From positions 11,209-75,208 of the forward strand of contig CAYFWV010000028.1 in assembly GCA_964346975.1 (NCBI GenBank): a DNA stretch of 64,000 nucleotides, given 5' to 3'. The stretch is from an uncultured Candidatus Bathyarchaeia archaeon (GTDB lineage: Archaea; Thermoproteota; Bathyarchaeia; Bathyarchaeales; SOJC01). The notes under the pieces are model-generated. The model was not told the origin of the DNA and ran no database searches. It saw only the letters and a program-made list of their open reading frames with translations. The translations under genes were made by a program, and so were the position numbers. Of this stretch, positions 39,617 to 42,974 are shown in pieces. The stretch's first letter is position 1. The number at the start of each line of letters is the position of its first letter.

Positions 39617-41197
39617 TTGGTGAATAGTGGCGAAATACCTTTGGAGCTCACGACGTCTAACAAGATCACTATCGACTACACACAGCATGCTGAACGTGTC
39701 AAAGACGTATTTCCCACCCATTTCACAAGGCCCAAAATTCGCGAATTCCCAAGAAGCAGAGAGGACATCGTTGACAAACTGCTTCAGTACAACAGCAGCA
39801 TTTGTGCTCCAAGGAAAGTGATTCAGAATGTTGAGTCTCTCTCTCAGCCGGATACCTATGCAATAGTAACTGGTCAACAGCCTGGTTTGTTTACGGGGCC
39901 ACTCTACACTATTTACAAAGCAATCTCTGCGGTTGTTTTGTGTGAGCGTCTGTCGGATAGCAAGAAGACGCTGGTTCCAATATTCTGGAACGCATCTGAA
40001 GACAGCGATCTTTCCGAAGTTGACCACGTCACGATTTTCAAGCGAAATACCCCGTTCACCATCCTCTACAATCTGCAACCAATGAAAGTAGCCTTCTCAC
40101 ACCTACAGCTTGACAAAGAATCATGCAGAAAGATGCTTTCAACAATCGATCTCACCTCTCCAGACTCGGAATTCAAGTTGAGGCTAATGAAATCGATCTC
40201 CAAGGTGATTGATCTCTCAACGACTGTTTCCGATTTCTTCTCAAGGCTTATGGTTCATCTCCTTGGTGACTTTGGGCTCATAATGGTTGAACCTAACCTG
40301 CTTCGATGCTCGATGACTCCGATTTTTCAGAAGCTGATCAGAAAGCCTGTTGAGTGTACAAGGATTCTGTCTCAAACGAGTGCTTGGCTGAAAACTGTAG
40401 GCTATCCAGCTCAGATTCACAAGAAACCTGATAGCTGCAATTTTTTCGTTATCGGTGATGAGGGAAAGAGACTACAGGTGACATACAACAGAAGTGCCCG
40501 CAGGTTTCAGTCTGGAAACGAAAGCTTCTCTGAAGCAGAGATTCTCAAGCTACTGAGCGACAACCCCCAAGCATTCAGTGCGAATGCGGTTATCAGACCA
40601 ATTACACAAGATTTCCTTTTCCCAACGTTTGGCTATGTAGCTGGACCAAATGAGATAGCTTACTTGGCGCAACTCAAGGGAATATATGAGTTTTTCTCCC
40701 TGGAGATGCCCATTATCTTCCCAAGGTTCGGCGCAACAATAGTGGAGAAAAAAATATCGAAAGTGGCCACGAAATGTAAAGCTGAGATAGCTGAATTCAG
40801 GAACCCTGAAAAGCTGCTGAAAAAGCTTGCTGGGAAGAAACTCGAAGTCTTCAACTCACTAAAACAAGAGGTATCAAGACGCATGATAGCAGCTGCCGAA
40901 CAAGCCGAGGCTGTCGACACGTCTCTGGTTGAGTCCATTCAGATAGCAAGGACTAAAATTCTCAAGACAATCGAAACTCTTGACAACAAGCTCGCAGCGA
41001 AGATTAAGGAAAATGACACAGTGACTAGACAGCAAGTCATGAAGGCTTTCAACAATCTCTTTCCGAATGGAAACCTTCAAGAGAGGCAGATAAGTGTCCT
41101 TGAATACCTCGCGAAATACGGAGACAGGTTCCTCCAAACCGTCTATGAAAGGTTTTCGAAGGCTAAATTTGGTGAACATGTCGTGATTGAATGTTAG
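39617..41197 (+). CDS. bshC: bacillithiol biosynthesis cysteine-adding enzyme BshC
   Basis: [46 protein letters not shown].., [33 protein letters not shown].. and [18 protein letters not shown] are colinear with B. subtilis BshC/YllA as I remember it. Confidence 0.85.
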   Translation: [526 protein letters not shown]

Positions 41198-41868
41198 ACA
41201 TTATGGCGCTAAGCCCGCACCCTGATGACATAGAACTGTCCTGTGGTGGCCTAATAGCCAAGATGAGCGAGAAACGATATCATGTCGGAATAGTAGATCT
41301 GACCAAGGGTGAATTGGGAACTGAGGGAACGGAGAGTATTAGAGCTGAAGAAGCGCGAAAAGCAGCGAAGGTGCTTGGCATGCAGATCCGGGAAAATCTG
41401 GACTTCGGGGATTGTAGACTGGATCACGGCTTTGACAAAGCCATTAGACTTGCTGATACTATTCGGAAACATCGACCGTCGCTGGTGATTGCGCCTTATG
41501 AGGCTGGTCATCATCCCGACCATATTGCGGCAAATCAGCTGGCAAAGAAGGCTGTTTTCCTAGCCAAACTCATAAAGATAAGAACAGATCATCCTGCCCA
41601 CTCCGTGAGAGCTGTTGCATACTATATGCTTGAACAGCAATTTGTCCCTTCGTTAGTAGTTGACGTCACACTGCAGTATGATACAAAGATAGAAGCAATC
41701 AAAGCCTACAAGTCCCAAAAGAACTTGATACACGGAGTCGGAGGACTACTCGAGCACGTGCAGGTTCGAGATCGGTTGTTTGGATCCAGAATTGGCGTTA
41801 AATATGGTGAGCCATACTACTATGAAAGACCCTTGAAAGTTGATGATCCGGTGATTGCGTTAAGATGA
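41191..41868 (+). CDS. bshB: LmbE/PIG-L family deacetylase, BshB1-like
   Basis: IMALSPHPDDIELSCGGLIAKM..VGIVDLTKGELGT..R.EEARKAAKVLG..GHHPDH. Overlaps the bshC stop by 7 nt. Confidence 0.85.
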   Translation: MLDIMALSPHPDDIELSCGGLIAKMSEKRYHVGIVDLTKGELGTEGTESIRAEEARKAAKVLGMQIRENLDFGDCRLDHGFDKAIRLADTIRKHRPSLVIAPYEAGHHPDHIAANQLAKKAVFLAKLIKIRTDHPAHSVRAVAYYMLEQQFVPSLVVDVTLQYDTKIEAIKAYKSQKNLIHGVGGLLEHVQVRDRLFGSRIGVKYGEPYYYERPLKVDDPVIALR

Positions 41869-42974
41869 GGATTGGAATTGCATGTTTCCCTACCTTCGGA
41901 GGTAGCGGAATCATCGCCACAGAACTCGCAAATCTACTGTCAAAGAAGCATGAATTGCATCTGGTCAGCTATGATACGCCTGTCCGATTCGATGACACTA
42001 TGGACTTTCACTTTCATAAGGTAGAACTGCTGAGTTACCCTCTCTTCAAACGTGTGCCCTGTTGCTACACTCTGGCTCTGGTTTCAAAACTGGTGGAAAT
42101 CACAAGAAAGTACTCATTAGATCTTATTCACACACACTATGCGGTTCCCAACGCTGTCTCCGCCTATTTGGCCCAAAAGATTTGCAACAACTCTGTCAAA
42201 GTGGTAACCACACTGCATGGTACTGACTCCTACCTAGTCGGGCTTCATCCATCGTACAAAGAGGTTACACAGTTCAGTATGCAGCAAAGCAATGAGTTGA
42301 CAGCAGTCAGCAAATATTTGAGGAGACGCACAATCAACGAGTTCAACCTATCACGGGAGATCCAAGTCATCCCAAATTTCGTCAATCCAGAAAAGTTTAG
42401 GAAACAGGAAAAGATAGAACCTCACAAGATCATATGCCATTCCTCGAATTTCAGGGCAATCAAGCGAATCCCCGATATTGTCAAAGCCTTTGCTATAATA
42501 AATGAGGATTGCTCACGTTCAGATATCAAGTGCAAACTATACTTGATCGGAGATGGACCTGAACGCCTCAAAACTGAAAGATTGGCCCAAGCTCTAGGAG
42601 TTGCGAAAGAAACTTCTTTCTTGGGAAATGTGAGAAATGTGCATGACCTGTTGGGAAAGTCAGACTTGTTTCTGCTGCCATCTGAAGATGAAAGCTTCGG
42701 TCTAGCAGCATTGGAGGCTATGAGCTGTCAAGTGCCTGTAGTTGCCAGTAGAGTTGGTGGTCTACCTGAGCTCATTTCACATGGTGTGGACGGTTACTTG
42801 ACTGGAGTTGGAGAACCAGAGGAGCTAGCTGAGCACTCGCTAAAGATTCTGAAAGATCCGAGACTTCAAGGGGAATTCGGTAGAAACGCCCGCGAAAAGG
42901 TTCTCAAGAAGTACACTCCTGACAAAATCGTACCACAATATGAAGCTCTATACAACAAGCTAATGGGCATGTGA
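41865..42974 (+). CDS. bshA: GT4 glycosyltransferase, BshA-like (N-acetyl-alpha-D-glucosaminyl L-malate synthase)
   Basis: [28 protein letters not shown].H.. resembles BshA [23 protein letters not shown]. ..[29 protein letters not shown]. ATGA overlap with bshB. Confidence 0.85.
   Translation: [369 protein letters not shown]

Follow-up and report, generated by a model that had tools for sequence, protein, structure and literature searches.

Whether an archaeon can make bacillithiol (BSH), an antioxidant thiol that to our knowledge has been shown chemically only in bacteria, is the question raised by a locus in the genome of an uncultured Candidatus Bathyarchaeia archaeon. The low-molecular-weight thiols of most archaea, coenzyme A (CoA) and gamma-glutamylcysteine aside, are an open question, and in anoxic sediments few archaea are as abundant as Bathyarchaeia. 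The locus lies in a stretch of 64,000 nucleotides (contig CAYFWV010000028.1 of assembly GCA_964346975.1, positions 11,209 to 75,208 of the forward strand), hereafter referred to as the window; all positions below are counted from its first letter. An initial annotation, made from the sequence alone, had described the bshC, bshB and bshA genes of an archaeal genome as a complete operon with translational coupling. Our analysis upheld this description: family cutoffs, conserved residues, homology to Protein Data Bank (PDB) structures, base composition, selection and synteny agree. We conclude that the three genes probably form a native and functional bacillithiol biosynthesis operon of the bathyarchaeon.

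The bshCBA genes and their products

The open reading frame (ORF) listing contains three ORFs on the same strand, 39617-41197 (526 aa), 41191-41868 (225 aa) and 41865-42974 (369 aa). After correction of the first start codon the genes are as follows.

39620 to 41197, plus strand: bshC, 525 aa from a conserved GTG; bacillithiol cysteine-adding enzyme
41191 to 41868, plus strand: bshB1, 225 aa; N-acetylglucosamine (GlcNAc)-malate deacetylase of the LmbE/PIG-L family
41865 to 42974, plus strand: bshA, 369 aa; N-acetylglucosaminyl-L-malate synthase of the glycosyltransferase family 4 (GT4)

The bshC/bshB overlap is 7 nt long (junction ATGTTAG), with the bshB ATG at 41191 and the bshC TAG stop at 41195-41197. 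The bshB/bshA overlap is 4 nt long, the bshA ATG at 41865 lying inside an ATGA that also holds the bshB TGA stop. Thus, the ORF listing and the junction sequences bear out the overlaps that had been noticed initially, and the peptide motifs cited with them were all found in the ORF translations. The extent first given to bshC needed one correction: the gene itself stands, but its start at TTG 39617 does not. Alignment of the upstream regions of bathyarchaeal loci placed the start at GTG 39620, directly after the TTG of the mechanical ORF. This GTG is aligned in every bathyarchaeal bshC orthologue, and in the closest relatives the called gene encodes 525 aa.

Every product scored above the cutoff of the corresponding NCBIfam equivalog model: 428.8 bits for BshC against TIGR03998 (cutoff 265.8), 229.5 bits for BshB1 against TIGR04001 (cutoff 182.5) and 442.3 bits for BshA against TIGR03999 (cutoff 273.7). 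The scores of the window BshB with other models (BshB2, 61 bits; MshB, 30 bits; Mca, 25 bits) were far under their cutoffs, and the next-best model for BshA reached 138.5 bits, with MshA at 66 bits against a cutoff of 462. Pfam analysis of the operon proteins revealed the two-domain architecture of BshC (a Rossmann-like N-terminal part, PF10079, at residues 9-370 and a coiled-coil dimerisation domain at the C-terminus, PF24850, at residues 373-525), a PIG-L domain in BshB and GT4 domains in BshA. In comparisons with PDB sequences, residues 47-512 of BshC were aligned to the Bacillus subtilis BshC structure 4WBD (E 5.8e-53). BshB matched B. subtilis BshB1 (6P2T, 3e-37) and the B. cereus protein 2IXD (2e-36), and BshA matched the B. 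anthracis (2JJM/3MBO, 5e-87) and B. subtilis (5D00, 9e-83) enzymes.

Intactness of the enzymes was assessed by alignment columns at least 95% conserved among bacterial homologues (50 bacterial sequences in the case of BshC), and the active-site checks were based on these conservation statistics and one review (PMC5790435). The window proteins retain 34 of 35 such columns in BshC, 24 of 26 in BshB and 79 of 83 in BshA. The BshC motifs GQQxGLxTGPLY, FW..EDxD and GPxEixY known from the Bacillus enzyme are kept. The zinc ligands His12, Asp15 and His113 of BC1534 (PMC5790435) have their counterparts in H10, D13 and H111 of BshB, which lie in PHPDD and HHPDH motifs. BshA retains the GGSG loop, HGTD, SNFR..KR and E276/E284 (E-x7-E). 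The initial identification of a protein colinear with BshC, a BshB1-like LmbE deacetylase and a BshA-like GT4 enzyme is therefore upheld for all three: BshC lies within its family by score with its conserved positions kept, BshB1 exceeds its cutoff with the zinc ligands in place, and BshA exceeds its cutoff with nearly all conserved columns. In addition, bshC co-occurs with bshA and bshB in one overlapping operon, which is the criterion by which bshC was discovered.

Host genome and origin of the operon

The operon is flanked by archaeal genes for aMBF1, aTrm56, TFE-alpha, an HD protein, a DUF2110 protein, aEF-1beta, CDC48, exosome proteins Rrp42/Rrp41/Rrp4, SBDS, proteasome alpha and beta subunits, NAC and an ArcTGT C-terminal/PUA protein. 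The archaeal setting had been read initially from MBF1, TFE, exosome and NAC genes, all of which were confirmed.

The same operon was found in at least 14 bathyarchaeal species (GTDB species set), a lower bound as the genome scans were pattern-limited and covered up to 80 loci. Among these genomes are four closed bathyarchaeal chromosomes of 1.7-1.9 Mb (CP070649, CP070835, CP070730 and CP070683). About 75 protein clusters share at least 50% identity, and BshC relatives at 52-84% identity come nearly all from Candidatus Bathyarchaeota/Bathyarchaeia metagenome-assembled genomes (MAGs). Several of them are already annotated as 'bacillithiol biosynthesis cysteine-adding enzyme BshC' by NCBI and JGI. 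The BshC of the closest relative, locus L188 (GCA_041549005.1), is 84% identical by BLASTP and 85% identical over the alignment used for selection analysis; the next relatives, L185-L187, are 78% identical. In L185-L188 the gene order PyrB/PyrI-NAC-ArcTGT, bshCBA, aMBF1-HflX-aTrm56-TFE-HD-DUF2110-aEF1beta-CDC48 is syntenic with the window, and aMBF1, HflX, aTrm56 and TFE stand beside the operon in the independent assemblies L004 and L185-L188.

The composition of the operon is that of its surroundings. GC content is flat along the window, the tetranucleotide distance of the operon to the window falls in the 38th percentile of equal-sized segments, and of the 54 genes ordered by codon-usage deviation bshC is 51st and bshA 50th, which places both among the most typical in the window. 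Ratios of nonsynonymous to synonymous substitution rates (dN/dS; pairwise, Nei-Gojobori) against L188 and L186, respectively, were 0.21 and 0.14 for bshC, 0.16 and 0.16 for bshB, and 0.12 and 0.11 for bshA. The neighbouring genes gave 0.12 and 0.16 (HflX) and 0.25 and 0.30 (aMBF1). The operon is under purifying selection similar to that on HflX and aMBF1, and the range of 0.11-0.21 rejects its pseudogenisation. Since the operon occurs in at least 14 species and in closed chromosomes, matches the window in composition and is under purifying selection, chimerism or a recent transfer is very unlikely.

Two other genes of the window are disrupted. An orthologue of tdh (L-threonine 3-dehydrogenase) at 1027-2160 on the minus strand (E 6e-97 with the Pyrococcus enzyme, 2DFV) contains an in-frame TGA at 1693-1695. 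The TGA sits at a conserved Trp (NIWKNP) and amounts to a single TGG-to-TGA change, for which a nonsense mutation or a sequencing error could be the cause; recoding is the least likely explanation. The glmS gene (glutamine-fructose-6-phosphate aminotransferase; 56456-58320, minus strand) is split by a frameshift near 57545 into a GATase ORF and an ORF with two SIS domains; the split may stem from an indel in the assembly or be a genuine lesion.

To place the operon among its homologues, neighbour-joining (NJ) trees with 100 bootstraps were built from taxon-labelled bacterial and archaeal loci for each of the three proteins, as the initial annotation had proposed; the trees are indicative. In all three trees the window sequences and the other bathyarchaeal sequences of the same type (type 1) form one clade with 100% bootstrap support. 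A compact group of MAGs that bear the labels Aerophobetes, Clostridia or 'bacterium' is sister to it (100% in BshC, 78% in BshA; the BshB tree did not resolve this placement), and these, at 42-46% BshC identity, are the closest non-bathyarchaeal relatives. Near this pair are Theionarchaea, as well as a pair (100%) consisting of Heimdallarchaeota and a second bathyarchaeal type. Taken together, the bathyarchaeal, Aerophobetes-like, Theionarchaea and Heimdallarchaeota groups form a clade supported at 89% by BshC and at 51% by BshA; the BshB NJ tree did not recover it. The whole assemblage is nested in bacterial diversity (Aminicenantes, Latescibacterota, Planctomycetota, Bacteroidota, Chlorobi and Firmicutes), and contiguous bshC-bshB-bshA order is common in bacterial phyla. 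No domain-diagnostic genes were found in the flanks of the sister contigs, where NifS, MoeB, FdhD, NadA and CysK are not diagnostic.

On the best reading of these trees, the whole operon passed between domains long ago and was then inherited vertically within the bathyarchaeal clade. The trees do not fix the direction or the number of transfers because they are NJ only, their sampling is biased toward the query and the sister-contig flanks are not domain-diagnostic. The earlier suggestion of horizontal acquisition or a wider natural distribution was right in outline: the operon is lineage-wide in Bathyarchaeia and nested in bacterial diversity beside other archaeal operons.

The second bathyarchaeal type is a canonical bshC-bshB-bshA operon in the Bathyarchaeia MAG SMAG_U14241 (L115 6001-9260 and L122 6001-9385). 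Its BshC is 33% identical to that of the window and groups with Heimdallarchaeota at 100% bootstrap, which suggests more than one acquisition within Bathyarchaeia. In the Aerophobetes-like locus L017 (12639-13565 and 3541-4740) the bsh cluster has the order C-A-B and lies near cysK (cysteine synthase) and nifS, which fits a cysteine-supply context.

Genes linked to the operon in Bathyarchaeia

Directly upstream of bshC the window contains three further features, two of which, an amidohydrolase gene and the remnant of a deleted DinB-like gene, were absent from the initial annotation. A related cluster occurs in other genomes of the class.

38449 to 39402, plus strand: PF04909 (Amidohydro_2) TIM-barrel metal-dependent enzyme, 317 aa; Pfam E 1.1e-36
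39425 to 39484, minus strand: 19-codon relic of a DinB_2/mycothiol-S-transferase-like gene, about 5 N-terminal and about 15 C-terminal codons and a stop (LIEKG joined to AIGRRRQSDDHFFA and the stop codon)
39567 to 39583, plus strand: promoter-like box of the BRE/TATA type (BRE, B recognition element), TATAGACTAAAATAATC, 37 nt upstream of the bshC GTG
L030, L033-L036, L044, L196, L209 and L212 (for example L036 6182-12619), other Bathyarchaeia: type-2 bsh-like cluster

Conservation of neighbours was determined by clustering all ORFs over 13 bathyarchaeal bsh loci with readable flanks. The amidohydrolase is the only neighbour of bshCBA conserved in all 13; the remaining flanking genes vary by locus. 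In 12 of the loci it directly precedes the operon on the same strand; in L002 it is distant and inverted. Its identity across loci, 69-79%, exceeds the conservation of BshC, and its dN/dS of 0.09 indicates strong constraint. The window protein scored 127.6 bits against PF04909 (gathering threshold 26.4), and residues H12, H14, H173, H211 and D271, an HxH motif, two His and an Asp as expected of metal ligands, are invariant.

An AlphaFold 2 model of the amidohydrolase, with the input sequence taken from the protein search, had a predicted local distance difference test score of 84 and a predicted template-modelling (TM) score of 0.85. The top Foldseek matches were all PF04909 structures, the best of them (TM 0.58) being the uncharacterised BB4693, followed by the folds of LigW, gamma-resorcylate decarboxylase and ACMSD. 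We assign no function or subfamily to the protein because these matches, with TM scores of 0.5-0.58, are at the level of the family only. No bsh or DinB genes were found within 7 kb of bacterial amidohydrolase homologues (38-53% identity). Homologues in other Bathyarchaeia (58-63% identity) belong either to a lone divergent DinB/amidohydrolase pair or to the type-2 cluster.

Between ArcTGT and the amidohydrolase gene of the window is a stretch of about 2.5 kb (35947-38448) with small ORFs without significant family match, some of them membrane-protein-like. The stretch is absent from L186, and L185 (1-6171) has an integrase and a REP_ORF2-G2P rolling-circle Rep element there; the L185 amidohydrolase is truncated to 274 aa. 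The site upstream of the amidohydrolase may be an integration hot spot.

In seven loci an intact DinB-like gene of 160 aa is present on the opposite strand between the amidohydrolase gene and bshC, and in the closest relatives, L185-L188, it occupies this exact spot in all four. The intact protein matched PF12867 (5.6e-13), PF04978 MST (3.9e-6) and NF047843, and its best PDB matches were the Mycobacterium tuberculosis mycothiol S-transferases 8F5V/8FX9. Proteins of the DinB/YfiT fold are known bacillithiol and mycothiol S-transferases (PMC5790435), and the DinB-like protein is a candidate bacillithiol S-transferase. When all 2862 six-frame segments of the window were searched with a profile of seven intact orthologues, a single segment, KGAIGRRRQSDDHFF, passed the inclusion threshold (E 0.0012). 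It lies in the 214-nt spacer that separates bshC from the amidohydrolase gene, on the minus strand, and no other DinB copy was found in the window. Alignment of the spacer DNA to L188 and L186 revealed an internal deletion of about 423 bp plus about 23 bp, with the bshC promoter box intact. As the gene is a deletion relic here and intact in L185-L188, this genome has recently lost its adjacent candidate BSH S-transferase. All 33 genome matches of the DinB-like subfamily are from Bathyarchaeia, 21 of the 33 stand back-to-back with an amidohydrolase gene, and several bathyarchaeal genomes have extra solitary copies. In the closed genomes bin87, bin106 and bin42 the pattern-limited scans gave no DinB match, which is evidence neither for nor against a copy there.

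The consensus of the promoter-like box, TATAGGTTAAAATAATC, is found at the same spacing from the GTG in most bathyarchaeal loci. The box occurs once in the window when up to 3 mismatches are allowed (chance expectation 0.04), and its core does not recur as a motif in the rest of the window. We take the box for a putative archaeal BRE/TATA promoter, which would make bshCBA a transcription unit of its own. Co-transcription of the amidohydrolase gene with bshCBA as a rule was rejected: bshC has its own box, and in many loci a gene on the opposite strand intervenes.

The type-2 cluster is not present in the window. It has genes for an LmbE-like protein, the amidohydrolase and a BshC-like protein in this order on one strand and for BshA and one to three DinB paralogues on the other. 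Its BshA (408.8 bits) is over the equivalog cutoff, its LmbE protein (72.8 bits against 182.5) and its BshC-like protein (47.1 bits against 265.8) are under theirs, and the BshC-like protein carries a CxxC...CxxC insertion. These assignments use NCBIfam scores only, as the pooled BshC and BshB profiles contained type-2 sequences and would have been circular. The cluster resembles the operon of the window in having the amidohydrolase family directly upstream of a BshC-family gene, along with BshA, LmbE and DinB paralogues, and differs from it in the low-scoring BshC-like and LmbE proteins, the insertion and the gene arrangement. It may make a different thiol.

The amidohydrolase gene lies directly upstream of bshC or a divergent bshC-like gene in two independent cluster architectures. 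Together with the Bathyarchaeia-restricted DinB-fold transferase the amidohydrolase might constitute a lineage-specific extension of BSH metabolism with a BSH-linked reaction undescribed in bacteria, a proposal that we regard as tentative. Three candidate roles can be named. The enzyme could be a non-orthologous amidase of BSH S-conjugates that acts with the DinB transferase and recycles glucosamine (GlcN)-malate to BshC. It could supply the acceptor or cosubstrate for BshC. Finally, it could catalyse a step in thiol-dependent breakdown of aromatic acids, a role suggested because the nearest folds of the model are LigW, gamma-resorcylate decarboxylase and ACMSD.

Proposed pathway, rival explanations and known systems

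In the pathway that we propose, transcription would start from the BRE/TATA-like box 37 nt upstream of the GTG, and the three genes would be translated as a coupled unit via the two stop/start overlaps. By orthology to the characterised Bacillus enzymes, BshA is predicted to transfer GlcNAc from UDP-GlcNAc onto L-malate, the zinc enzyme BshB1 to strip the acetyl group, and BshC to join cysteine to GlcN-malate, giving Cys-GlcN-malate. The whole operon would have entered the ancestor of the bathyarchaeal clade by an old inter-domain transfer and since then have been inherited vertically and fully ameliorated. The lineage-specific bathyarchaeal module comprises the operon, the PF04909 amidohydrolase and the DinB-type candidate BSH S-transferase, the last recently deleted here; the four remaining genes (amidohydrolase, bshC, bshB and bshA) are under purifying selection in this genome. 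Real use of the thiol in the clade is supported by the DinB/MST-like gene adjoining the operon in relatives.

Several observations weigh against a native and functional BSH pathway in this organism. BSH has never been chemically detected in any archaeon, and only 2 archaeal hits to YpdA are given in the review that states this (PMC7278568). For no organism, Bacillus included, has the BshC reaction been reconstituted in vitro (PMC5790435), so that this step rests on bacterial genetics. Our confidence is limited by these two circumstances, the lack of chemical detection in archaea and the unsolved chemistry of BshC. No bacilliredoxin, YpdA/Bdr or FosB was seen among the ORFs of the 64-kb window scanned with Pfam, and the candidate S-transferase next to the operon is deleted. 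The apparent frameshift in glmS touches the supply of UDP-GlcNAc, the donor substrate of BshA. The sole departure of BshC from the conserved columns, H130S, falls in the ED[H]D motif at a His at least 95% conserved in bacteria. In BshC of the archaeal clade, however, position 130 is H (most sequences), D (13), S (4), A or N, and Ser130 is common to the window protein and its closest relative, P0001. H130S therefore looks like relaxed constraint in the lineage rather than a private lesion. As to origin, the trees were sampled with a bias toward the query, and the sister contigs are labelled bacterial on the strength of the depositors' binning.

A contaminant or mis-assembled bacterial segment fused to archaeal DNA would account for the overwhelmingly bacterial occurrence of BSH genes and for nearest non-bathyarchaeal relatives in MAGs labelled bacterial, and the disrupted tdh and glmS genes hint at imperfect assembly. 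We nevertheless regard this explanation as extremely improbable. The operon has the same archaeal neighbours in L004 and L185-L188, it is present in the four closed chromosomes, its tetranucleotide and codon usage are indistinguishable from the rest of the window, and the bathyarchaeal clade is monophyletic at 100%. The tetranucleotide check suggested in the initial annotation thus spoke for a native segment. If the genes are native, their product might still be non-canonical (a modified thiol, one with another aglycone, or only GlcN-malate), or the pathway might be decaying here; the amidohydrolase might modify the pathway, or, with the DinB transferase lost, H130S might impair BshC. Such an outcome would be in keeping with the substitution in ED[H]D, the deleted DinB-like gene, a conserved extra enzyme of unassigned role linked to bshC only in Bathyarchaeia, and a type-2 BshC-like/LmbE cluster in sister lineages, by which variants of the thiol pathway occur in the class; moreover, the cosubstrate of BshC is unestablished in any organism (PMC5790435). 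We consider it improbable, as all three proteins exceed equivalog cutoffs, which are function-specific by design, BshA retains 79 of its 83 conserved positions, position 130 is repeatedly variable in a well-conserved archaeal clade with Ser also in the closest relative, and dN/dS values point to ongoing constraint. A class-I methyltransferase at 19163-19987 was tried as a candidate for NmbA, the bacillithiol N-methyltransferase, and rejected: none of its 19 PDB matches at E≤1e-5 was named NmbA, the top one being the generic methyltransferase 3MGG, so that the window methyltransferase gives no sign of a modified thiol.

The remaining alternative concerns origin. The operon could be ancestrally archaeal in an archaea-rich clade from which the Aerophobetes-like bacteria acquired it. 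The archaeal groups and the Aerophobetes-like group do form one BshC clade (89%) with the bacterial group nested inside, and nothing in the sister-contig flanks is diagnostic of bacteria. The same clade, however, has 51% support in BshA and is missing from the BshB NJ tree, it is itself nested in bacterial diversity with the same common gene order, and among archaea the operon has a patchy distribution over Bathyarchaeia, Theionarchaea and some Asgard lineages. The direction is beyond what NJ trees with biased sampling can decide, and we judge an archaeal ancestry unlikely. An old transfer of a complete operon into Bathyarchaeia, where it probably serves BSH synthesis, is the reading we prefer.

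Compared with the pathway of B. subtilis and B. anthracis, the window has the same three enzyme families at the equivalog level with zinc ligands and GT4 motifs retained. In Bacillus, however, the genes are split between two operons, one with bshA-bshB1 and one with bshC, in the company of pantothenate and methylglyoxal genes (PMC5790435), whereas here they form one C-B-A operon; the host is an archaeon, BshC has H130S, and Brx, YpdA and FosB are not seen in the window. The C-B-A order is identical in Aminicenantes, Latescibacterota, Planctomycetota and Zixibacteria, but bacterial bsh clusters are without the amidohydrolase and DinB neighbours of the bathyarchaeal operon, and the Aerophobetes-like loci L017 and L021 differ in their C-A-B order with cysK nearby. 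Heimdallarchaeota and Theionarchaea operons have the C-B-A order too; the bathyarchaeal BshC is only 31-36% identical to Asgard and Theionarchaea BshC and forms its own clade. The mycothiol system of Actinobacteria is similar in its scheme: a GT4 glycosyltransferase, an LmbE deacetylase and cysteine addition, then a DinB-fold S-transferase and an S-conjugate amidase, and the best PDB and NCBIfam matches of the bathyarchaeal DinB-like protein are mycothiol S-transferases. It differs in that the window proteins are far under the MshA, MshB and Mca cutoffs, no MshD was found, and the cysteine-adding enzyme is of the BshC type, not the CysRS-like MshC.

For BshA and BshC alike, Rawat and Maupin-Furlow counted 39 InterPro hits in archaea, most of them in Asgard (PMC7278568). 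As in the present case, BSH capacity was predicted from homologues, with BSH itself undetected chemically; Bathyarchaeia, operon structure, phylogeny and linked genes are not described in that review (PMC7278568). According to a preprint on Asgard viruses, BshA is 'prevalent in Asgards'; in a 2025 survey of RefSeq no archaeon had the complete pathway (PMC12719100), and Hiras et al. 2018 do not mention archaea. No paper linking bacillithiol to Bathyarchaeia was found in the searchable literature. The archaeal bacillithiol operon is thus as real as the initial annotation had it, but less unexpected than was assumed, since archaeal homologues have been in the literature since 2020 (PMC7278568) and these bathyarchaeal proteins already carry the name BshC at NCBI. 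Homologues and public annotation were known; the operon is undescribed in the searchable literature, and the Bathyarchaeia-specific amidohydrolase/DinB module and the type-2 cluster look new.

With a large bathyarchaeal clade carrying a native, constrained and complete bsh operon along with candidate BSH-dependent transferases, the notion that archaea may make BSH becomes a specific, testable prediction. The operon would also document an old inter-domain exchange of an entire cofactor pathway among sediment microbes, and the linked amidohydrolase is a concrete new candidate in BSH biochemistry, in which the BshC reaction is still unsolved.

Some other genes of the window deserve mention. A peptide deformylase homologue at 12180-12734 on the plus strand (PF01327, E 1.5e-39) is another typically bacterial function in this archaeal genome. 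The compositionally most deviant regions of the window, 7223-10441, 14232-18889 and 24533-27172, encode large predicted surface or secreted proteins. Among these surface-type proteins are one of 1072 aa with four CARDB repeats, one of 879 aa with CarboxypepD_reg/InlB B-repeat domains, and one of 1013 aa, which has weak metallopeptidase motifs and precedes dockerin-like and C39-peptidase-like ORFs.

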